DNA of 64,000 bases. It comes from Magallana gigas (lineage: Eukaryota). Below are positions 1 to 36,258 of the stretch, in pieces (within the stretch, counting starts at the first letter, position 1; every line of letters begins with the position of its first letter). The stretch covers positions 12,834,001 to 12,898,000 of the forward strand of contig NC_088857.1 of assembly GCF_963853765.1 (NCBI RefSeq), in the 5' to 3' direction. Position numbers and translations under genes: made by a program. The notes under the pieces were generated by a model. That model was not told where the DNA came from. It was given only the letters and a program-made list of their open reading frames with translations, and did no database searches.

Positions 1-720
1 CCTATCACCAGGGTCACTATATCCATCACTAGAGTTTGTGTGCCCAACAACGGGGTCTGTACACCCTCACCAGGGTCAGTATACCAATCACCCGGGTCTG
101 TACACCCATAACCAGGGTCAGTATACCCATCACCAGGGTCTTCATATCTATCACCAGGATCAGAGTGCGTATCACCAGAGTCTGTACACCCTTAACCAGG
201 GTCAGTATACCCATCACCAGGGTATGTACACCCATAACCAGGGTCAGTATACCCATCACCAGGGTATATACACCCATAACCAGGGTCAGCATACCCATCA
301 CCAGGGTCTCACTACCTATCACCAGGGTCAGAGTACGTATCACCAGAGTCTGTGTGCTCATCACCAGTGTCTGTACATCCGTAGCCAAAGTCAGTATACC
401 CATCACCAGGGTCTCAATACCTATCACCAGGGTCATAATGCCTATCACCATAGTCAGAGTACGTATCACCAGAACTGTAAACATATCACCTGGGTCATTA
501 TACCTTTTAGTAGGGTCAGTGTTCGTAGTACTAGGGTCTGTGTGCCCATTATAATGGTCTGTATATTCATAACAAAGGTCAGTTTACCCTTCACCAGGGT
601 CTTAATACTTTTCACCAGGATAGTGTACGCATCAATAGGGTCTGTGTGCCCATCACCAGGGTCAGTATACCTAACACAACAGTCAGTGCACTTATCATTA
701 GGGTTTGTATATCCATTACC
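1..720 (-). repeat. 21-bp-monomer satellite array, reverse orientation (runs off the window start)
   Basis: Units such as cctatcaccagggtc and cccatcaccagggtc are the reverse complement of the gaccctggtgat(a/g)gg monomer of the downstream array. Polarity flips at about 720-740. Confidence 0.9.
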
Positions 721-734
721 TGAGTCAGGTAATA

Positions 735-3700
735 CTGACCCTGTCGATAAGTAGAGTGACCCTGGTGATAGGTATACTGATCCTGGTGCAGATTACACAT
801 ACCTTGGTGATACGTACACTCATGATCCTTGTGATATGTATACTGATGGTGATGGTTATACTTACCCTGGTTATAGATTTTGAGATTCTGGTGTTACGTA
901 TGCTGACCTTATAATATCTACACTTTTGTGTATACCGACTCTGGTGATGGATACATATTGACCCCTGTAATTGGCTACAGACCCTTGTGATACGTACACT
1001 GACTCTGTCGATAGGTATACTGACCCTGGTGATAGAGAATGTGATAGATATACTGGTGATAAATGTACTGACTCTTGTGATAGGTATACTGACCTTGGAG
1101 ATGGGCCCTCAGACCCACGGATGCGTACACTGACACGGCCGTTAGGTAAACTAACTCTGGTGATAGGTAATAGGTACAGTTATCCTGGTGAAAGTCTACT
1201 GATCAAAGTCATGGATGTACAAACCCTGATGATAAGTGCACTGACTGTTGTGATAGATATACTGACCCTAATGATGGGCACACAGACCCTATTGATTCGT
1301 AAACTATTCCTGGTGATAAGTATTTAGACCCTGGTGATGGGCATACTGGCCCTGGTTATGGGTGTACAGACTCTGGTGATGGGCACACAGACTCTGGTGA
1401 TACGTACTCTGACCCTGGTGATTGGTATGATGACCCTGGTGATGGGTATACTGACACTGGTTATGGGGGTACAGACTCTGGTGATGGGCACACAGACTCT
1501 GGTGATACGTACTCTGACCCTGGTGATACGTATGGAGACCCTGGTGATGGGTATACTGACCCTGGTTATGGGTGTACAAACTCTGGTGACTGACACACAG
1601 ACTCTGGTAATACGTACTCTGACCCTGGAGACCCTGGTGATGTGTAACTGACCCTGGTAATGTGTATACAGACCCTGGTGATAGGTCATGGATAGATCTA
1701 TTAGGGGTCAGTGACATGTTCACCCCTTATACCCCCCCCCCCCCCAAACAAAATAGCTCCTGAGTAAAAGAAAAAAAATATAGATTTCACCCTCTCCCCC
1801 TCCTTGTCTTGGATTTTTTATTGTTGGTTATGTGTATACTGACACTTGTGATGGGCACACTGACTCTGGTGATACCTACACTGACCCTGGTGATAGCTAT
1901 GGAGACCCTGATGATGGGTATTCTAACCCTGGTCATGAGTGTACAAACTCTGGTGACAGACACACAGACTCTGGTGATACGTACTCTGACCCTGGAGACC
2001 CTGGTGATGGGTATACTGACCCTGGTCATGGGTGTACAGACCCTGGTGATAGGCACACAGACTCTGGTGATACGTACTCTGACCCTGGTGATAGGAATGG
2101 AGACCCTGGTGATGGGTATACTGACCCTGGTTATTGGTGTACAGACTCTGGTGATGGGCACACAGACTCTGGTGATACGTACTCTGACTCTGGTGATAGG
2201 TATGGAGACCCTGGTGATGGGTATACTTGCCCTGGTTATGGGTATCCAGACCCTGGTGATGGGCACACAAACTCTGGTGACACGTACTCTGACTCTGGTG
2301 ATAGGTATGGAGACCCTGGTGATGGGTATACTGGCCCTGTTACGGGTGTACAGACCCTGGTGATGGGCACACAGACTCTGGTGATACGTACGCTGACCCT
2401 GGTGATAGGTATGAAGACCCTGGTGATGGGTATACTGGCCCTGGTTATGGGTGTACAGACTCTGGTGATGGGTACACAGATTCTGGTGATACGTACTCTG
2501 ACCCTGGTGATAGGTATTGAGACCCTGGTGATGGGTATACTGGCCCTGGTTATGGGTGTACAGACTCTGGTGAGGGGCACACAGATTCTGGTGATACGTA
2601 CTCTGACCCTGGTGATAGGTATGGAGACCCTGTTGATGGGTATACTGGCCCTGGTTATGGGTAAACAGACAATGGTGATGGGCACACAAACTCTGGTGAC
2701 ACGTACTCTGACCCTGGTGATAGGTATGGAGACCCTGGTGATGGGTATACTTGCCCTGGTTATGGGTGTACAGATTCTGGTGATGGGCACACAGACTCTG
2801 GTGATACGTACGTTGACCCTGGTGATAGGTATGGAGACCCTGGTGATGGGTATACAGACCCTGGTTATGGGTGTACAGACTCTGGTGAAGGGCACACAGA
2901 CTCTGGTGATACGTACTCTGACCCTGGTGATAGGTATGGAGACCCTGGTGATGGGTATACTGACCCTGGTTATGGGTATACAGACCCTGGTGATGGGCAC
3001 ACAAACTCTGGTGACACGTACTCTGACCCTGGTGATAGGTATGGAGACCCTGGTGATGGGTATACTGGCCCTGGTTATGGGTGTACAGACTCTGGTGATG
3101 GGCACACAGACTCTGGTGATACGTACTCTGACCCTGGTGATAGGTATGGAGACCCTGGTGATGGGTATACTGACCCTGGTTATGGGTGTACAGACTCTGG
3201 TGATGGGCACACAGACTCTGGTGATACGTACGCTGACCCTGGTGATAGGTATGGAGACCCTGGTGATGGGTATACTGACCCTGGTTATGGGTATCCAGAC
3301 ACTGGTGATGGGCACACAAACTCTGGTGACACGTACTCTGACCCTGGTGATAGGTATGGAGACCCTGGTGATGGGTATACTTGCCCTGGTTATGGGTGTA
3401 CAGATTCTGGTGAAGGGCACACAGACTCTGGTGATACGTACTCTGACCCTGGTGATAGGTATGGGGACCCTGGTGATGGGTATACTGACCCTGGTTATGG
3501 GTATACAGACAATGGTGATGGGCACACAAACTCTGGTGACACGTACTCTGACCCTGGTGATAGGTATGGAGACCCTGGTGATACGTATGAAGACCCTGGT
3601 GATGGGTATACTGGCCCTGGTTATGGGTGTACAGACTCTGGTGAAGGGCACACAGACTCTGGTGATACGTACTCTGACCCTGGTGATAGGTATGGGGACC

Positions 3701-5525
3701 CTGGTGATGGGTATACTGACCCTGGTTATGGGTATACAGACAATGGTGATGGGCACACAAACTCTGGTGACACGTACTCTGACCCTGGTGATAGGTATGG
3801 AGACCCTGGTGATGGGTATACTGGCCCTGGTTATGGGTTTACAGACTCTGGTGATGGGCACACAGACTCTGGTGACACGTACTCTGACCCTGGTGATAGG
3901 TATGGAGACCCTGGTGATGGGTATACTGGCCCTGGTTATGGGTATACAGACCCTGGTGATGGGCACACAGACTCTGGTGATACGTACTCTGACCCTGGTG
4001 ATAGGTATGAAGACCCTGGTGATGGGTATACTGGCCCTGGTTATGGGTGTACAGACTCTGGTGAAGGGCACACAGACTCTGGTGATACGTACTCTGACCC
4101 TGGTGATAGGTATGGAGACCCTGGTGATGGGTATACTGGCCCTGGTTATGGGTGTACAGACCCTGGTGATGGGCACACAGATTCTGGTGATACGTACTCT
4201 GACCCTGGTGATAGGTATGGAGACCCTGGTGATGGGTATACTGACCCTGGTTATGGGTATCCAGACCCTGGTGATGGGCACACAGACTCTGGTGACACGT
4301 ACTTAGACCCTGGTGATAGGTATGGAGACCCTGGTGATGGGTATACTGGCCCTGGTTATGGGTGTACAGACTCTGGTGATGGGCACACAGACTCTGGTGA
4401 TACGTACTCTGACCCTGGTGATAGGTATGGAGACCCTGGTAATGGGTATACTGGCCCTGTTATGGGTATACAGACCCTGGTGATGGGCACACAGACTCTG
4501 GTGATACGTACTCTGACCCTGGTGATAGGTATGAAGACCCTGGTGATGGGTATACTGGCCCTTGTTATGGGTGTACAGACTCTGGTGAAGGGCACACAGA
4601 CTCTGGTGATACGTACTCTGACCCTGGTGATAGGTATGGAGACCCTGGTGATGGGTATACTGGCCCTGGTTATGGGTGTACAGACCCTGGTGATGGGCAC
4701 ACAGATTCTGGTGATACGTACTCTGACCCTGGTGATAGGTATGGAGACCCTGGTGATGGGTATACTGACCCTGGTTATGGGTATCCAGACCCTGGTGATG
4801 GGCACACAGACTCTGGTGACACGTACTTAGACCCTGGTGATAGGTATGGAGACCCTGGTGATGGGTATACTGGCCCTGGTTATGGGTGTACAGACTCTGG
4901 TGATGGGCACACAGACTCTGGTGATACGTACTCTGACCCTGGTGATAGGTATGGAGACCCTGGTGATGGGTATACTGGCCCTGTTATGGGTATACAGACC
5001 CTGGTGATGGGCACACAGACTCTGGTGATACGTACTCTGACCCTGGTGATAGGTATGAAGACCCTGGTGATGGGTATACTGGCCCTTGTTATGGGTGTAC
5101 AGACTCTGGTGAAGGGCACACAGACTCTGGTGATACGTTCTCTGACCCTGGTGATAGGTATGGAGACCCTGTGATGGGTATACTGGCCCTGGTTATGGGT
5201 GTACAGACCCTGGTGAAGGGCACACAGACTCTGGTGATACGTTCTCTGACCCTTGTGATAGGTATGGAGACCCTGGTGATGGGTATACTGACCCTGGTTA
5301 TGGGTGTACAGACTCTGGTGATGGGCACACAGACTCTGGTGATACGTACTCTGACCCTGGTGATAGGTATGGAGACCCTGGTGATGGGTATACTAGCCCT
5401 GGTTATGGGTGTACAGACTCTGGTGATGGGCACACAGACTCTGGTGATACGTACTCTGACCCTGTAGACCATGATGATGGGTATACTGACCCTGGTTATG
5501 TGTATACAGACCCTGGTGATAGGTC
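735..5525 (+). repeat. Satellite array: 105-bp higher-order unit of five 21-bp monomers
   Basis: Unit gaccctggtgatgggtatact-gaccctggttatgggtgtaca-gactctggtgatgggcacaca-gactctggtgatacgtactct-gaccctggtgataggtatgga. Degenerate over 735-1320, regular from about 1327, interrupted by a non-satellite segment at about 1690-1830. Confidence 0.95.
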
Positions 5526-26677: not shown

Positions 26678-27841
26678 AAATCAAAATGCAGAATATTACC
26701 AACGTACCGGAAGAAATCGGTTGCGGCCAAGTATATCAGTATAATTAGAATGTAAATCGATGAACACAATTATGGTATTTGTGTAATTCACTGTTATTGG
26801 ATTGGAATATGAATAAAGTTCAGTATAATAAGTATTTGCAATAAATATTCCATACAATGCATAGAATATGCCTACTGGCGTACATGCTTATTACATGTAC
26901 AGCTGTATCTTTAATCATTTACTGGGAATTGAGTCCCATGTACGACCAAAACAGAAGGACAACAATAACATAGTTTAATAGATAAGTGACAAACAAAACT
27001 GTAAAAGGACTTTTAAGTGACATTATCATTAAAGCTGACTTGAATTCATAAAAGCATTTGGTCGCAATATTAGTTTAGATCGCTCTTCTACTGCCACTGA
27101 GGTATACTAGTATATATATACCGGTTGAGAAAGTTACGGTTGGTTAGTTTCCGATCGAGGCATTCAGGTTGCACGGACTTCTAAATGCATGAACTGCACA
27201 TTGTAGTGAAATGTTTTTAATAAAGAATAAAGGAAACAACAATCAATAAAACACAAAATATGATCATCCTTCGAAAGAATTTCCAAGGTATCCGATTTAT
27301 TTTGCACCGATAGTCTTACTTTGAATGCATGTACAACGAACATGTGTGTCGTTCAAACATAGTACATAACGTCTGCACCTTTTAAAAAAAAACCCGACTG
27401 CACTACATCCAACATAGTAGCTGAAGTATCAAAGTAACATCGTTTCCATTGGTTTCTGCAAAAACACCCCTTTTCCAAAATCCATGCGATCACTGACATT
27501 GCTCTTAGCATTTCGGGCTCATTTCAGGGGCTTATATCTCACTTGAGTTTTAACACCTAATTAATTGTTTCCAAGTTCTTGTGATCAAACTCAAGTGCGA
27601 TATAAGCCCCTGAAATGAGCCCGAACCCCTGGGAACCACTTGGTGGTACCCCTACAGCCCAAATTTGAGACCGCGAAATAATATTCCCATACACTACCCT
27701 GATATCCGTTTGATGCACACTAAAGAGATACGGAAAATAATGGATCACTTTTTATAACTATATCACTGTGAAGTGCTAAAAAAGATAAAAGATATCCAAA
27801 TATTAGGAATTTACTATATCTTACGGTATGTAACGGGATAA

Positions 27842-28170
27842 GAGAAATAATGACGGACCAGACCAGGATTCGAACCCGGGCCCACTGAATCTCTAGTCGG
27901 GTGCTCTACCAACTGATCTTTCTAGCGCCGGTATTCGAACCGGTCTGACCGTCACATTCCTCCCCCACTAAATGATCTTCGCCCTCGAAGATCACACCAG
28001 GCTCTTCCCCTGGCAGGAGTTCACCTGTCAGTTCCAGGGGTTGGCCACGGCACGGGAGAAATAATGACGGACCAGACAGGATTCGAACCCGGGCCCCTGA
28101 ATCTTTAGTCAGGTGCTCTACCAACTGAGCTATCTGGCATATTCGGTATTCGAACTGGACAGACCGTCAC
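27842..28170 (-). mobile_element. Tandem tRNA-derived SINE-like heads
   Basis: Two related units (about 27842-27952 and 28056-28170) with A box tagctcagttggtaga and B box ggttcgaatcc on the minus strand. Acceptor and anticodon stems are imperfect. Confidence 0.65.
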
Positions 28171-28464
28171 AGCTTATTTGGTGGAGGGATAGGACAAATC
28201 ATCCAGTCATTCTGTAATTGAGTTTCATTCCTATTTTTATCAAACTACTTAATATATCAGTGATTTTCGGGCATGACTAATTTCATAGCAATGAACTTAC
28301 GAATAAGTTCTTTCTTAAGATATAACTTAGACCTAAGTATGCTTTGTTAAATGGGCCCCTGTACTAAGGCATCATTCATTTACTAGATCTTGAACTTAAA
28401 TGAACTGATATTGTAAGTAGGTGACATTGGTCTTATCTATCTGGATTTCTTAAAACAAGTGACT

Positions 28465-31400
28465 ATGAGATCGCCTCTTGCTCTTCTATTCTTCCTTTCA
28501 TTTGCTATCCTGGAGACTGAGGGTAAGGTTTTCGTATTATATATATCCATTAATTAACATTCTACGAATACATTTTTTGGGGGGAAATACTTTGACAATT
28601 CGTTGACAATAAATAATTTTCAATAATTATACACTGAATAATAGTCGTTATATATTATTTTTGACCAGGTTGTCACGTGGGCTGGATACAGTTTCAGGAC
28701 AAATGTTATTTTTTCAGCCACACCACGGCCACTTGGTTCGATGCAGGAGTAAGTACTGCAAGTTTCATGTATATTTTTGTTTTGCTTTGCTTGTTTGTTT
28801 TTTAAGGTTTATATTCGGTTGATGTTTGCATTAAGGAGTCTCCACACCTTTGCGAAAATTTTTCTCATACAATCAATTAAATCTGAGTGTTGTTGCTTGT
28901 TGAATATCCATTATATATTAAAACGTCCTATTATTCGAATACAATTACTCAAAGAAATACATTTTTATCGAATTTTCTATTTTCAGAGCACGTGTTTACT
29001 GTTCCACGCAAAGCTGGCTGAACCACGATCTTACGATGAAATAAATTTCTTACGAAGCCATAGCCAGTCTTTAAGTAACATGACCCTTATTTTGTGTTAA
29101 AGAACAGTTCAAAGATTTCATATCCAATGCGTAATGAAGAAAGAAAACGCTCGTAAAAAGCATTGAAAAATTACGGTAAATATACATGTATGCGATTAGA
29201 GCCCCGCTCTGTGGGCGCCATGTAGTGGCCGTTCTTTACTTCAGTCCTTCTCTCTGTCCGTCTATCTGTCTGTCCGTCTGACATTACTTGTCCGGACAAT
29301 ACTTTCTCTCCCTTTAGCAAAATCTGGTTCATACTTTACCCAGAGAGTCTCTTTGAGTAAAGGATGTGCTTGGTAGTTCTTCCACAAAAAGCGTTTGCAA
29401 TACACTGCAGTTTACAGTGAATCATGTTTTAGGTCAAATGTCAAATTCATTTCAGAACTCTTTGAACAAATCTTGTCCTGACTTTATCTTATTTACCCTT
29501 CTTCCGATCTTACCATGTTTCACATAAATTATATTTGTGTAACGTGTGTCCAGCCGAGTGGTTGCTATTATGTATGTGGACACGTACCCGGTTACACCCG
29601 TGATTCTGCAGAACACGTTATTATAAACTGTCCTGTTAGCTTTCAGTCTAGTAACACACTGAATCAATATATTTACGCTGATTATTTTAATAAATTTACT
29701 TAATCAAGATATTTACGACGATTGGTACTTAAATCAAATGTTAATTTCACAGGGATTTACCTAAGCCCAAATCAAATCAACCACAAGTCTCCCCTTGTTT
29801 ATTTAAAACCAATGTCCCTGACCACTTGCCCGGGCTATCAAACTACCCCCTGACCCATGCCCTCAGACATTTGGCCTTACCAAGGGTTCTGGCTACTGAC
29901 CCGAGGTCTCTAACCAGTTGATTTCCCCAGCTCCCTTTCACACTGGTGTTCAGGCTTAGTCAGCCTTTATTGCCAAGTGTCAAAGCTACGGTGGTTGGTC
30001 AACTGGCACAACCTATACTATATGGCATTCTTCAGCCCTACGTAGCCTTTAATCTAATAATGCCTATTCAGCCCTACTATATAGCCTTCACTTACTCTAC
30101 GCTCCTAAAGATGTTCCCAGTCTGGCTGCAGTGATCTGTCGACTACCGCTGTTTATATAGCTTCGGCACATTCCATCTTTACCTCAAAGGGGGAACAGGC
30201 TATTACCATGGAAATACCCTGTACTACCCTATTTTCTGTTATTGGTATGACCTGATTCGTCACATCACCCACCCATTAAAGTCATACGCCCCGTATGAAA
30301 ACAACTACTTTTTCCCATTTTACTAAGCTGCAAACAAATAAGGACCTAAGAATATCTTTCTATAAATCCAGTTCTTACATATTCATTAGGACATTTAAAA
30401 TGTACAATTATTCACAAAAGTTTTTTTTTCTCGATCTTCTTGATCTGTCTTCCATCTTCTATCCATTTGGTGATGATCTTGACACTTTCAGTAAAGTACA
30501 GTAGATCATTTTGGCGCTCTTTGTCTTCAAAGGAAGGTCTGTCCGCGGCTGGCTCACAAGGCAGAGAGACAAAGCTAGTCGCAGCTTTCACTGGAGCACT
30601 TACCGACAACGGCCTAGTTGGCTTGCGGTAGATTCTACCTTCTTCGAGCAGCAACTCTTTTGAAATCATGGATTTCTTCTTGCTCCTCGCTTCAGCCGAT
30701 CGCGAGTCATCATTATCACCATCACTTATATCCTCTTGTAGTAGGCTTTGGAGGTCCCCGGGGTCCTGTCTGACCCAAGAATCTGCATCTGACTCATTGC
30801 CGTCACACTCAGATTCAGCCCATCTGCCTCGCCACTGTTTTCTTCACCAATGTCATGTTGCCTCTTGAGGTGCCTTCTCAGATTCTTGGGAGTGGTGGAA
30901 CTAAAATCTCAATAGTTACAAAATTAGAGATTCTGGCTACAATTACCGATGTGTTTTGCTAATTCGTCATCTCTATTGAACCGGTAAGGACAGAATGGAC
31001 ATTTCCTGTCTTTTTTCAACATAATCTTCGTCTTTGGCATTGCAACCTAAAAAAACAATGCAGATGTAAAACTATCTTTCTAATAACAACAGCTATCAAC
31101 AATACAGATTTCTAAATGTTTAGCTAATTCTATTTCTAAACTAAATTAATCTCTAATAAAATCTGACATCCACGTAGGAGGACGTCTTTCCCTTTTCGAA
31201 GGACCAAGCGAACGCTCATCATTTTGACACTGTTGTCCTAAAGTCGACTCTGACAATTGGTCGCCAATCTGATTATTCTCACTATCAAAATCATCTACAA
31301 CATCAGGTTCTTTCAGTTCCACGATGTCTTCCGGACTTTCGTGCTCAACTTACTCATCCAGCTGACTGGACTCTTCCCTTAATAATTGGGGATGTTTAAG

Positions 31401-34400
31401 TGTGATCCGATCTACGTGGACAATTGTTCTTTACCCCTTTGTCCACAATCTAACCTATTATTAAGTTCTGAGCACTTGCCCAAAATCTTGTAAGGTCCCC
31501 GCCAGAAAGATGTCAATTTTGCAGATCTACCAACTGGAAAGTATACAAAAACTATATCACCAGGGGAAACCTTTCCAAAACTAAGCTTCCGATCATGATA
31601 TGTCTTTTGTCGACTCATCGATTGCTTTGTATTCTTTCTTACTATGCTGTGGGCTTCTTCTATGCGTTCCTGTAACTTCCAAACCCATTGGTTTCTAGGT
31701 GTTATTTTCAAATCTCCTGACAATTTGTACATGAGATCTAAGGGTGTAGTTGTCTCTCTGCCTAGCATTAAAAAGTTCGGGGTATAACCAGTGGTCTTAT
31801 GAACAGCTGACCGATAGGCCTGCATAACATATGGAAGAGATTCATCCCAATTTGTCTGATGGTCGTTCACACAAGCACTAAGCATGGTGGCTAAGGTTTT
31901 ATTAAACCGCTCTACCATTCCATCACTTTGAGGGTGGTAAGGTGACGTCCTTGTTTTCTCGATATGCAGTAAGGCACAACGTTCTTGGAACAAATTGCTT
32001 TCATATTGCCTACCCTGATCGGAATGAAGTATCCTAGGCACTCCAAGTTTCGCAGAGACTTCTTCAACCAATATTTTTGCAACAGTTTGAGCTTCCATGT
32101 TGGGCATGGCAAAGCTCTCTGTCCATTTGGTAAAATAGTCAAATGCCACCAATATATATCGGTTACCCCTCTTTGTCTTTGGCAATTCCCGTAAAATATC
32201 GGTAGCTACTCTTTCCATGGGGATTCCAGATTCAAAAACAACTTTCATCAGAGCTCTCTTGGTAACGTTTGGACCTTTTCTTTTCGAACACTTCTCACAG
32301 CCTGCAACGTATGTTCTAACATCTTTTCTGCATCCAGGCCAATAGTATTTGCTTCGTACCTTTTCCAGTGTCTTTTTATGACCAGAACCTTTAAAATCAT
32401 GGTAAAAGTAAAGTACCTTTCGTCGTTCCTTGGCTGGTATTACAGCTTGTTTGATGGGTCTTGCATCCCGAGTATCATTTTTTTCTTTTTGCTTCACAAT
32501 GTTGGTTTTCACAAGTTCATTGTTACTCTTTGCAAACAAAGATCCGTATCGCAACAGAAAAGCTTTCACTTCCTTGGCTTGTTTCTTTGAAAGATGTTTT
32601 ACAGAGTCTTGATATAACTGCTCAATGTCATGCCGCTCTGCTAAATTACACGAGTCGCTTAAGCTCACCGCGTCTGTTTCTTGAAATTGACCGATTTCAG
32701 CATTCTTATAACCAACCTTTGGCTCTGGGTCTACATTCAACAACCTAACAGGTACAATGTTTTCAAGAGGTCTGACAAATGTTCTGGCTGTCAGTGGCCT
32801 ATTTGTGTCTTCCTTAACTTTAGAGTCTACAATACCTTCGGATTGCAATTCTCTATCATCCAAGGTACACACTTTCCCGGGTACAATTAAGGGGGTTTCG
32901 AGGGGGTTTTCTGACCGTTTCTTTGGCCACTACCCTAAAGCATCCAAATTTACCTTCGTAAAGCACTGAAATCCGTTCATCCTGAAATGACATTACTGTG
33001 GCTTCATCAATTTTCGTTGAATACCAATTTTCGTGGATTTCGTTTTTAAGTTGATCCATGAAATTAAATGTTCATTGAAATGCAATTTCTATTAACATTT
33101 TGTATTGATAGGGTCATTGTCCATGAATTTACATATCCTTGAAACTGTGATTTTCACTTTATCCACAAAAATTGATACCCTTGAATATTAATGAACTCAC
33201 AGTACACCATTTTCGTATCTATGATCATATCAAAATACTTGATCATATCCAATCCCAGTATACCCTCAACCTGAAGATCGGCTACCAAAGCTAACGTCTT
33301 TACAATATGGTTCTCTATTTCCACCTCAATTTTGACTTTCCCTTCCAATGTCAATTCTTTGCCATCTGCAGTAAATACTTGCATGCCAGGTTCCTGAATC
33401 TGTACTTCACAATGATCTTTTACCGCTTTCATTGACACTGACGATAACATGGTAACAGTAGCCCCTTGTCCACTAATATTTTTACTTTAACACCATTAAT
33501 CATGACATATATGAACATTCCCGCTTCATTTGAGCATGAACCAAGTCTAACAGTCAGATGACCATTTGACCTCTTATATTCATACTTCTTCACAGTATCC
33601 CGCTCTTCTGAAGTTTTATTACTTTGTGTATTCTTGACCTTCTCTGGACAGTTCTTTTTATAATGTCCTCTCTTATGACACCCGTAACATTTTACTGCAT
33701 CCATTGCTTTACCTGGTCCAGGTGAGGATTTGAAAGGCTTCCGATCAGACGGTCCTTCGCCCTTTCTGAGCTGTTTTATTTCCTTGTTCATATCTGCTAC
33801 ATTCTTTTCTATTGATGCAATCCAGTCCTTCAACTCTATCTTGAAAGATTTCTCACCAGCTGATGTATCATTCATCAACTGGTGTTGGTAGGCCCGATAA
33901 CATCGTTTGTCTTCTGCCCTAGGGTATGCCTCCAATTCTACGGCGTGCTTTATGGCATCATTTAAATCCCTTGGACGAACTTGTTTAATTCTTATCATCA
34001 TGTCCGAGTCAGGCAAAGCATCCAAGAATTGCTCCATAGCCAGGGTTTCCCGCACTTCAGATGGGGCTTTTGGATAGGCAAGATTTGCCAGTCGTCTAAC
34101 AGCTTGTCCTAATTCTGGGATGGTCTCTGTTGCTCTTTTCCGCCTTTCCCTCAGTTGAAGTCCATACAACTCTGTTTGGTTGGGTGGGGCAAATCGTTCT
34201 TCTTATGCTTGAACCAGATAGTAATAATCAGTGTTATCATCTGGCAAATTTCCAAAGACCGATTGAGCTTGACCACGAAGAGATGCTGCGAGAAATAAAC
34301 ATTTCTCCTCTTCTGTCCAGATAAGTTTACCAACGGTATTAAAATGGGTCGTATAGTCCAACCACGAACCACTTCCATCGTAGGTTGTAGCTTTGACCTC

Positions 34401-36258
34401 CCGTCTGTTAAACCTCCGAGTCTCCGTCTCTTTTCCTTGGACAGTTGGTCTGTAATAACGCCTCTCAGTGACATTACCAGTATTCACCCTAGGTTCAATG
34501 CCATTCCTATTTGTTTCAACCCTTGTATCCATTTCCTTATTGAACCTTACTTTGGGACGAGTATGGTCAAATTGTCTATCGGGTCTAGCATCCGGAAAAT
34601 GGTCAGCCATAGGGCTCCTGGGAATAATCGAAGAAGGTCGACCACTGGCAATTCCCGATTCGTAGTTATCAATCTCAATTTTGCGAGGTCTTGGCGTTAA
34701 ATGCATGACATTTCCTTGCTGTCGGATACTTGTCTCTAGCTCTCTTATTTCTTCATATAGAGCCGTCAGTTCTCATTCCAAGTCAGCTGTTGCCATTATT
34801 CACAATGAAATATAAACACACTAAACCTTTATTAAAGTACCAGAAAATATAAGCACAAACAAAAAATGCATTTTCCTAATCTGCAGAATCCCACCCCTGC
34901 CACCAAAAATTATGTAACGTGTGTCCAGCCGAGCGGTTGCTATTACCGGTATGTACGTGGACACGTACCCTGTTACACCCGGGATTCTGCAGAACACGTT
35001 ATTATGAACTGGCCCGTTGTCTTTCAGGCTAGTAACAAACTGAATCAATATATTTAATCGAGATATTTACGACGATTGGTGCTTAAATCAAATGTTAATT
35101 TCACAGGGATTTACCTAAGCCCAAATCAAATCAACCATAATATTTAAAACCAATGTCCCTGACCACTTGCCCAGGTAATAAAAATTACCCCCTGACCAAT
35201 GCCCCCAGACAGTTGGCCTTACCAAGGGTTCTAGCTACTGACCCGAGGTCTCTAACCAGTTGATTTCCCCAGCTCCCTTTCACACTGGTGTACAGGCTTA
35301 GTCAGCCTTTATTGCCAAGTGTCAAAGCTACGGTGGTTAGTCAACTGGCGCAACCTATAATATAAGGCTTCTTCAGCCCTACGTAGCCTTTAATCTAATA
35401 AGGCCTATTCAGACCTACTCCATAGCCTTCACTTACTCTATGCTCCTTACGATGTTCCCAGTCTGGCTGCAGTGATCACACTCTGATTTTGCCGACTACT
35501 GCTGTTTATATAGCCTCGGCGCGTTCCATCTTTACTTCCAAGGGGGAACAGGCTATTACCATGGAAATACCCTGTACTTCCCTATTTTCTGTTATTGGTA
35601 TGACCTGATTCGTCACATTTGTTTGAAAGGTTTGCCAGGACATTTAACCAAATTCTTGTCTAAAATCTCTTTTTTTTTCTTCTTGCTACTGTTTCTCTCT
35701 TACTATACCCATATAATGTCTCTTTAATATAGGATGTGATAAAAATTTTAGAACTTTAATTCTAAGCCATAGGTCCAGGTACCTTTAGCAGTTTAGCAGA
35801 AGCAATGTTTGAAGAGAGTGGCTTTTTAAAATTTACAATGTTTTATTAATTTTGCTGGTCATTTAAATAGATAGACATATGTGGATCGGGGTGTCGGACA
35901 TTATAGAAGAGGGTCGTTTTGTATATACGTCCACACAAGAAGTAGTTCAATACACTGACTTCGAACCTGGAGAGCCAGGCGGTCACCTGAGTCAGAACTG
36001 TGTCATCCTTTGGAATGATTTTCATGGAAAATGGGCAGATTTTTATTGTACCTCACGTTTATATTACGTCTGTGAAGAGATTGCAACGTAAGTAAAGGTA
36101 AAGCGTGGATCTAAAACTTGGTATTTTGTAAAATTGTTATAAACCTTGATACCTTAACATTACGAATAGCAAAGAAAAACATAAAGATGTATGTTTTAAG
36201 TTAATTTTTGTTGAATTTTTCTGATGACAGGTCCCATCAAGTAAATGTAATTGGTTGA
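28465..36258 (+). CDS. Secreted single-CRD C-type lectin (perlucin-like), paralog 2
   Basis: Exons 28465-28522, 28669-28748, 28987-29074, 35871-36087, 36231-36258. Exons 2-5 have the same sizes and phases as paralog 1 (80, 88, 217, 28 nt). Intron 3 contains the LTR element. Confidence 0.9.
29538..30264 (-). repeat. 3' LTR
   Basis: Direct repeat of 34913-35617 with substitutions and indels. Preceded on the element strand by the purine-rich gggtgggtga (candidate PPT, about 30265-30274). Confidence 0.95.
30412..31040 (-). pseudogene. Accessory ORF3 of the LTR element: zinc-finger plus acidic protein, disrupted
   Basis: ATG at 31040 behind acceptor ttttttag|G (exon start 31046). Translation MPKTKIMLKKDRKCPFCPYRFNRDDELAKHIGNCSQNL*FCNY*DFSSTTPKNLRRHLKRQH. 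A frameshift near 30820-30840 leads to ESECDGNESDADSWVRQDPGDL... and into ORF 30669-30412. Confidence 0.7.
31412..32872 (-). pseudogene. pol remnant: pre-RT region fused in frame to integrase
   Basis: HHCC (YHD..SGH..CEKC), DDE (VATDIL, HSDQG, MVERFN) and GPY (WRGPYKI) motifs are present. No YxDD or RNase H motifs between the protease and integrase. Confidence 0.9.
33154..34796 (-). pseudogene. gag-protease remnant
   Basis: ATG at 34796 with an early TGA and a frameshift near 34170-34200. CCHC knuckle CYGCHKRGHYKKNC. The protease D(T)G site is broken by a 1-nt loss (GAC AAG GGG CTA versus expected GAC ACA GGG GCT) near 33465. Confidence 0.85.
34886..34905 (-). promoter_or_regulatory. Primer-binding site, tRNA-Leu type
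   Basis: The plus strand reads gaatcccacccctgccacca, resembling a eukaryotic tRNA-Leu 3' end plus CCA. It lies 7 nt inside the 5' LTR boundary. Confidence 0.8.
34913..35617 (-). repeat. 5' LTR
   Basis: TG...CA termini. On the element strand a TATA-like ctatataaa (about 35505-35513) lies upstream of an AATAAA (about 35308-35313). Confidence 0.95.

Follow-up and report, generated by a model that had tools for sequence, protein, structure and literature searches.

A zinc-finger third ORF at the env position of oyster Gypsy retrotransposons, a conserved and apparently undescribed variant of the non-env accessory ORF

The env gene of Drosophila gypsy is expressed by splicing, while foamy-virus Tas, encoded 3' of env, and plant VANC are element-encoded, trans-acting DNA-binding regulators of the elements' own sequences. 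To our knowledge, self-encoded regulators are confined to complex retroviruses and very few LTR retrotransposons, of which CERV of the Caenorhabditis elegans element Cer1 is the clearest case that we found. According to the accessible part of its description, CERV is a spliced nuclear accessory protein encoded at the env position of a Gypsy element, comprises 517 aa from five exons partly shared with gag, contains at most a possible C4 finger, has no homologues outside nematodes and functions in the export of unspliced element RNA (PMC10309623). In bdelloid rotifers, family-specific non-env ORFs 3' of pol have been gained and lost across lineages and encode GDSL lipase, DEDDy nuclease, coiled-coil or transmembrane types; such ORF3s are typically expressed from spliced messages, and the words 'zinc' and 'finger' do not occur in the accessible part of that study (PMC5408684). 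Extracts of other sources report extra ORFs in plant elements and a RING motif in planarian Burro (PMC6431247), a RING finger in the gag of Osvaldo-type elements (PMC3630058) and, in an axolotl preprint, genes with LTR-element enzymes and C2H2 domains that are mentioned without analysis (10.1101/2024.04.04.588033). The main text of a metazoan errantivirus survey contains none of the words 'zinc', 'C2H2' and 'splice' (PMC13524379), and those of two mollusc surveys do not contain 'zinc' (PMC6238403, PMC10294476); the supplements of the first (PMC13524379) and of PMC6238403 may list the elements considered here. No description of a zinc-finger ORF3 was found in the literature searched, and Repbase, Dfam and GyDB, which lay outside the search, may hold the ORF unnamed. 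The zinc-finger ORF3 described below represents a real, conserved and apparently undescribed variant of the known non-env accessory third ORF.

The window, i.e. the whole stretch of 64,000 nucleotides of the Magallana gigas genome that was analysed (contig NC_088857.1, positions 12,834,001 to 12,898,000), contains a Ty3/Gypsy element recognized by LTRs with TG...CA ends, a primer-binding site, a polypurine tract and a flanking 4 bp target duplication. Its features are as follows.

34913..35617, minus strand: 5' LTR (TG...CA), direct repeat with the 3' LTR (86% with gaps)
35504..35514, minus strand: TATA-like box in the 5' LTR, position kept in sister copies
35431..35439, minus strand: predicted splice donor 76 nt past the TATA box, matching 7/9 positions of what we take to be the 5' splice consensus; the exon end would be 35437 (35436)
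34887..34905, minus strand: primer-binding site, located in the window sequence and presumably tRNA-Leu-like
33154..34796, minus strand: gag and protease by ORF reading, frame broken by a stop and frameshifts
32994..33210, no strand assigned: high-copy repeat of ~210 nt inserted in this copy, absent from sister copies
31412..32929, minus strand: pol remnant, post-protease segment joined to integrase, with RT/RNase H deleted near 32449-32486
31047..31062, minus strand: predicted splice acceptor (pyrimidine tract and TAG) 6 nt 5' of the ATG, with an equivalent in 16/19 families that have a separate ORF3
30412..31040, minus strand: ORF3, zinc-finger accessory gene, here a pseudogene (two stops, one frameshift)
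30939..31001, minus strand: finger 1, C2HC, with an acidic helix that probably does not read bases; all four of C, C, H and C unchanged in 27/27
30855..30920, minus strand: finger 2 (Pfam), C2H2, with a basic helix, interrupted in this copy
30505..30525, minus strand: position of the LC8-type QT motif, degenerate in this copy; Q invariant in 27/27, T in at least 90%
30265..30278, minus strand: polypurine tract, directly before the 3' LTR
29538..30264, minus strand: 3' LTR, direct repeat with the 5' LTR

The element is a decayed copy and its ORF3 is a pseudogene. The preliminary description, made from the sequence of this locus, had placed a broken zinc-finger ORF behind a splice acceptor between integrase and the polypurine tract, and the anatomy that it gave is borne out. 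ORF3 is flanked by the integrase ORF (31412-32929) and the polypurine tract (30265-30278); a minus-strand T-tract with AG ends at 31047, which would place the exon start at 31046, ahead of the ATG at 31040. The frame reads C-x2-C-x12-H-x3-C and then a second finger broken by a stop. The two stops are codons 39 and 44, and the single frameshift is near 30810; the 143 codons beyond it stay open as far as 30412 and include WVRQDPGDL and the basic tail. Two points were absent from that description, namely the missing RT/RNase H and the ~210-nt repeat. One read contig has 1575 further letters at the RT/RNase H deletion point, and the PR-RT-RH-IN domain order is present in a sister copy; the repeat is skipped by contigs of 3/4 runs, has a depth in the thousands and is very abundant in RNA contigs. 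Elsewhere in the window, a 21-nt unit is repeated in a long array over positions 1-5460, where both strands have open frames, and two tRNA-like SINE-type repeats ~214 nt apart, plus a tRNA-Pro gene, were noted at 27833-28171 and 42080-42151.

ORF3 resembles errantivirus env in being a third ORF between pol and the 3' LTR, but it encodes 205-250 aa with zinc fingers and has no signal peptide, transmembrane anchor or fusion-protein homology. The earlier statement that it is not env agrees with the highest 19-residue Kyte-Doolittle mean of 1.08 in 23/23 open homologues, which indicates that there is no membrane segment, and with Pfam and fold matches to zinc fingers only; even the N-terminal piece of the window ORF3, with X at the stops, matches Pfam zf-H2C2_5 at E 2.5e-8. 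Tas and VANC, similar by general description, differ from ORF3 in fold and element class, and Tas is expressed from an internal promoter. With CERV the oyster ORF would share the position, the splicing and the role of a nuclear accessory protein, while CERV is set apart by its description, the oyster ORF having its own ATG past the acceptor and less than half the length. The bdelloid ORF3s are alike in being extra ORFs 3' of pol and differ in the domains that they encode.

A DNA search of the oyster's own genome recovered two more copies at 89%, with ORF3 open for 211 codons in one and interrupted by one stop in the other; each shows further damage or has old LTRs (93-95% identity). The sister copy on C1 (L003, below G000:C1:61948180, minus strand) adjoins or sits inside an 866-codon ORF, which we take to resemble a PIF1-type helicase, perhaps of a Helitron. 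A protein search of the genome with ORF3 gave 51 matches at 48 loci, which were sorted by our own grouping into 11 families, and Gypsy pol sequence lies directly upstream of the match at 46/48 loci (29/29 and 17/19). At all of the first 29 loci this sequence is integrase, and the polypurine tract and LTR follow downstream unless truncated. Besides the 17 with upstream pol, the other 19 loci include an isolated fragment with a polypurine tract and a host finger gene, the sole non-Gypsy match examined, which matches the fingers only and not the C-terminal part. To avoid query bias, 40 loci were also chosen by RT, hand-picked to cover families among 150 scored RT matches (1759 candidates). The content 3' of their integrase was this ORF type in 15 cases (nine new families), other Cys/His-rich ORFs of about five kinds in 13, two unrelated ORFs in one, an internally deleted ORF3 in two and no ORF in three, while six were not judgeable. 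ORF3 is present in about 20 families of this genome, and the homologous ORFs consist of a C2HC finger, a C2H2 finger, an acidic linker, a QT motif and a terminal hairpin. In 19/20 families ORF3 is separate; in family F11 (L071, L072, L073) it is in frame with pol/integrase in 3/4 copies examined, with its own Met kept. The LTR of F11 contains five copies of a CTGAATAAG repeat, and family F7 (L050 leader) has a primer-binding site of TGGCGCCC type, unlike the other ten families, suggesting a switch of primer tRNA.

The preliminary description had proposed that sister copies be examined for an intact ORF3 with dN/dS below 1; the ORF is indeed kept in sister copies and in distant families, and Nei-Gojobori counts on natural copies give dN/dS of 0.19 between the two sister ORF3s (12/132 synonymous and 9/498 non-synonymous; Fisher p 2e-4). 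The corresponding values are 0.31-0.36 for the window ORF3 against the two sisters and 0.08-0.74 for seven within-family pairs, which when pooled, with the pair F9/F9b left out since its start is out of frame, give ~0.35 (55/1005 synonymous vs 68/3609 non-synonymous, p 1e-8). In comparisons across families, 11/11 pairs have synonymous divergence that is saturated or >2.4, at a dN of 0.34-0.82. ORF3 is thereby shown to be under purifying selection. Six groups recur in the RT and ORF3 trees (G80+G84, G85+G86+G91, G100+G102, F9+G88, F2+F4(+F5) and F1+F3), four of which have good support in each tree; the trees do not separate the deep nodes, and the RT tree takes in elements of this genome only. 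The shared groups show that ORF3 is co-inherited with RT. That ORF3 is a recently captured host zinc-finger exon in neutral decay might be read from the broken window copy and from RefSeq labels that make its homologues host transcription factors, but a dN/dS far under 1, frames that most families keep open, the agreement of the trees and an occurrence in three bivalve orders speak against it, and the dN/dS counts and RT/ORF3 tree congruence leave it practically no chance of being correct. Of the captured host exon proposed earlier, what survives is at most an ancient origin, the ORF being clade-wide and grouping as RT does.

Named homologues occur in Magallana gigas, Magallana angulata, Saccostrea, Ostrea, Argopecten, Mizuhopecten and Pinctada (oysters, scallops and pearl oyster), representing three bivalve orders, and are often multi-copy and on different chromosomes; at least 19 close variants are present in public collections, most of 212 aa. 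Judging by this multi-copy dispersal and by P0010 and P0212, which are predicted to be fused to integrase or gag-protease, the non-oyster homologues probably also lie in Gypsy elements. In a profile search of 1.84 billion proteins, ~22 of the best 150 rows were ORF3-like, multi-finger host proteins swamping the rest, while an Atlas search with one stored homologue returned unnamed clusters that serve as leads only, and a metagenome scan for relatives with DNA context gave 202 pattern matches, of which none was confirmed. The ORF3 homologues are labelled in RefSeq and UniRef as REST-, BCL11B-, hunchback-, HIVEP3- or Pegasus-like host genes; a host REST, BCL11B or hunchback gene would be a fixed locus with a multi-finger array, whereas ORF3 has two fingers and dispersed copies inside LTR elements. 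Such labels can mislead bivalve expression and gene-family studies, and ORF3 is relevant, too, to the passage of genes between transposons and the zinc-finger repertoires of their hosts.

The expression route was approached through two rules, both set after the first families had been seen and applied to families that are not independent: an acceptor, i.e. a pyrimidine tract with AG 0-10 nt before the ORF3 ATG, and a donor-like site 55-90 nt past the LTR TATA box. The acceptor was found in 10/10 of the first families (9 YAG, 1 AAG) and at 0/11 gag ATGs, against a background of 138/2182 non-coding positions (6%) and 65/1542 other ATGs, and in 6/9 families found after the rule was fixed, the other three having a nearby AG under the thresholds. 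The donor was found in 7/10 first and 6/8 later families (13/18) against 903/14599 background windows (6%); family F3 lacks a donor by this criterion, and F11, with ORF3 in frame, has neither acceptor nor donor. The donor is the weaker evidence because donor-like sites 60 nt past a TATA box, counted from a second TATA candidate, also occur in 2/3 ORF3-less elements; the notion that the donor is absent from the ORF3-less lineage was dropped on this account, and the LTR site may serve another role. A conserved GGTAC/GATC motif at the LTR end was also discarded as donor, being palindromic and varying to GATC in some families. The donor had been expected near the 5' LTR/PBS; the likely donor is predicted inside the LTR, ~76 nt past the TATA box, and not near the primer-binding site.

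The placement of these motifs makes a spliced subgenomic RNA for ORF3 likely. Transcription would start ~30 nt past the LTR TATA box, and a short non-coding first exon would be formed by joining the LTR donor to the acceptor 0-10 nt before the ORF3 ATG, with removal of gag-pol. Unspliced translation of ORF3, through an internal promoter or re-initiation, would make the AGs by-products of the spacers between pol and ORF3, which are T-rich and only 17-189 nt long, and no spliced reads (0 joints to the acceptor) were seen in eight shallow RNA or presumed RNA runs (X21, X22, X24, X1, X7, X6, X11, X14), where 52-197 reads per raw run and ~1/100 of the reads were covered, the acceptor T-run was skipped in one of two read alignments and the short predicted first exon (~45 nt) limits detection. 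In run X11, one contig of 5096 nt, which may be DNA, is unspliced across the acceptor. Against this reading, equally T-rich leaders and 3' UTRs satisfy the acceptor rule at just 2-6% of positions and the gag starts never do, and the one in-frame family is without an acceptor site; we therefore hold translation without splicing to be quite improbable and retain the spliced RNA. An apparent RNA cover of ORF3 only (share ~0.35 in many RNA runs) was rejected as a signal, the reads forming a patchy cover of the whole element.

The ORF3 protein diverges fast outside its motifs, and complete invariance (27/27) is seen for M1, the first seven metal ligands, R-x-x-T-x-P, one Trp of the acidic linker and one Gln close to the end; there is also a conserved basic patch, R-K-x-T-x-P. 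The first finger, a variant of C2HC type, has an acidic helix, and finger 2 is a classical C2H2 finger (37.5 bits vs a Pfam cut-off of 27) whose helix has R/K at position 6 in 36/36, K/R at -1 in 30/36 and N at 3 in 19/36. Basic or Asn residues are kept at positions -1, 3 and 6, which is the pattern expected of a DNA-reading finger. AlphaFold2 predicts two beta-beta-alpha fingers and a terminal hairpin with disorder between (mean pLDDT 64, pTM 0.23), and a Foldseek search returned nothing at E 0.001, its weak matches all being to fingers. The QT motif is situated in the last 40% of 34/36 proteins, is missing from three distant homologues and is present two or three times in several families. 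It fits published LC8 preferences (D at -4, D/E at +2), as given in the accessible part of a source that also reports many TQT peptides failing to bind LC8 (PMC6607443). In a predicted complex of a sister protein with LC8 of this genome, residues 171-180 occupy the LC8 groove with a score of 0.61 vs 0.16 for the best control; contact agreement among the runs is 84% or more, the partner pLDDT is 47-50, and the mark used, reached by 51/78 solved and 2/108 mismatched pairs, was calibrated on complexes that do not include peptides. This model predicts LC8 binding by the QT motif, and its pass may come from likeness to solved structures of a textbook kind of complex. A comparable layout of N-terminal fingers, a long disordered region and LC8/TQT motifs is described, in the accessible part of the source, for ASCIZ/ATMIN (PMC5963919), a host gene with many LC8 motifs as opposed to one to three in ORF3, and Pfam ASCIZ gave no match to this ORF type at E up to 1.

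Whether ORF3 acts in cis or in trans is addressed by natural deletions. Family F6 includes ten copies (L118, L082 and eight more) with one common internal ORF3 deletion vs five with the whole ORF, and in one copy with the deletion the LTRs are 99.9% identical and the gag-pol frame is 1657 codons long; an ORF3-less lineage at three loci has LTRs 99-100% identical. The spread of the ORF3-deleted variant shows that the ORF3 protein is not needed in cis. It would be shared in trans or conditionally useful, and is dispensable in cis and perhaps altogether, the F6 variant being a possible cheater. These deletions bear on a possible role of ORF3 as a tether between the integration complex and chosen host sites, for which the in-frame family F11, resembling elements with C-terminal targeting domains, could be cited; but ORF3 is a separate ORF in nearly all families and ORF3-deleted variants integrate, so that tethering is highly doubtful. 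The accessory DNA-binding protein of the preliminary description holds in part: an accessory nucleic-acid-binding protein is the best reading, while the targeting factor that it had included is weakened, since the ORF3-deleted variant multiplied.

The mechanism that we favour, although we hold it evenly poised between right and wrong, is that ORF3 is a trans-acting, LC8-dimerized DNA-binding regulator of the element's own LTR. The QT motif would dock in the LC8 groove and two ORF3 chains would thus be paired, turning two weak single-finger DNA contacts into one bivalent contact; finger 2 would read DNA, finger 1 and the acidic linker would contact proteins, and the target would be the LTR, the effect being most likely activation. 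No LTR motif tied to ORF3 was found among the LTRs compared, and repeat arrays were rejected as ORF3 binding sites, the LTRs of ORF3-less elements being equally rich in repeats. ORF3 may instead be a Rev- or CERV-like factor that binds unspliced element RNA and exports it from the nucleus. An element with strong splice sites needs such export, which Cer1 achieves through CERV, a spliced product at the env position, as stated in the accessible text (PMC10309623); C2H2 fingers can bind RNA, the R-K-x-T-x-P patch is basic, and the factor would act in trans, as the spread of the deleted variant allows. The residue pattern of finger 2 is nevertheless typical of DNA reading, and ORF3-less elements with donor- and acceptor-like sites still multiplied, though they may borrow the protein; RNA export is thus rather unlikely.

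ORF3 might also be an anti-silencing protein that binds to the element and clears away or prevents repressive chromatin, perhaps through competition for LC8. Plant VANC provides a precedent, and the fast divergence outside the motifs and the two or three QT motifs in several families point the same way, but the selection is purifying and no family-specific motif array is tied to ORF3; anti-silencing accordingly seems to us a distinctly weak candidate. LC8 is, in the accessible part of the source, an essential dimerizer of the Drosophila piRNA silencing complex PICTS (PMC7861614), which counts in its favour. The zinc-finger gene in ~20 families and three bivalve orders would offer a testable system for retrotransposon self-control or silencing evasion, with natural ORF3 deletion variants as controls.

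Neighbouring Gypsy lineages carry other third ORFs. At L116:2136-3368 (minus strand, G000 C10), a young element with 99.9% identical LTRs encodes N-terminal Cys/His fingers followed by a KCTD-type BTB/POZ domain (Pfam BTB_2, E 2e-18), and third ORFs rich in Cys/His, 150-460 aa long, were recognized in four or more additional kinds (L098 and L112; L101, L119, L108, L111 and L117; L104-L106 and L109; L113). The acceptor rule holds at 5/11 of the starts tested in these further ORFs, L110 included, several carry TQT-like motifs, and Pfam finger support is weak or nil for several kinds. A broader and more tentative proposal, which we consider possible but less than probable, is that a marine-invertebrate branch of Gypsy consists of 'complex' retrotransposons, in which the env slot and a spliced RNA would serve zinc-finger regulators (six or more architectures here, BTB being part of one) that recruit LC8 to activate or de-silence their own LTRs in trans, the shared protein being exploited by ORF3-deleted cheaters. 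If this is true, many annotated bivalve 'REST-like' transcription factors would be transposon genes. Among the elements surveyed, L064 and P0212 (an unnamed ENA protein) are non-autonomous derivatives that have kept gag-protease and ORF3 and lost RT, RNase H and integrase, and L099, L104 and L109 are tandem Gypsy copies with a common LTR, 100% identical.
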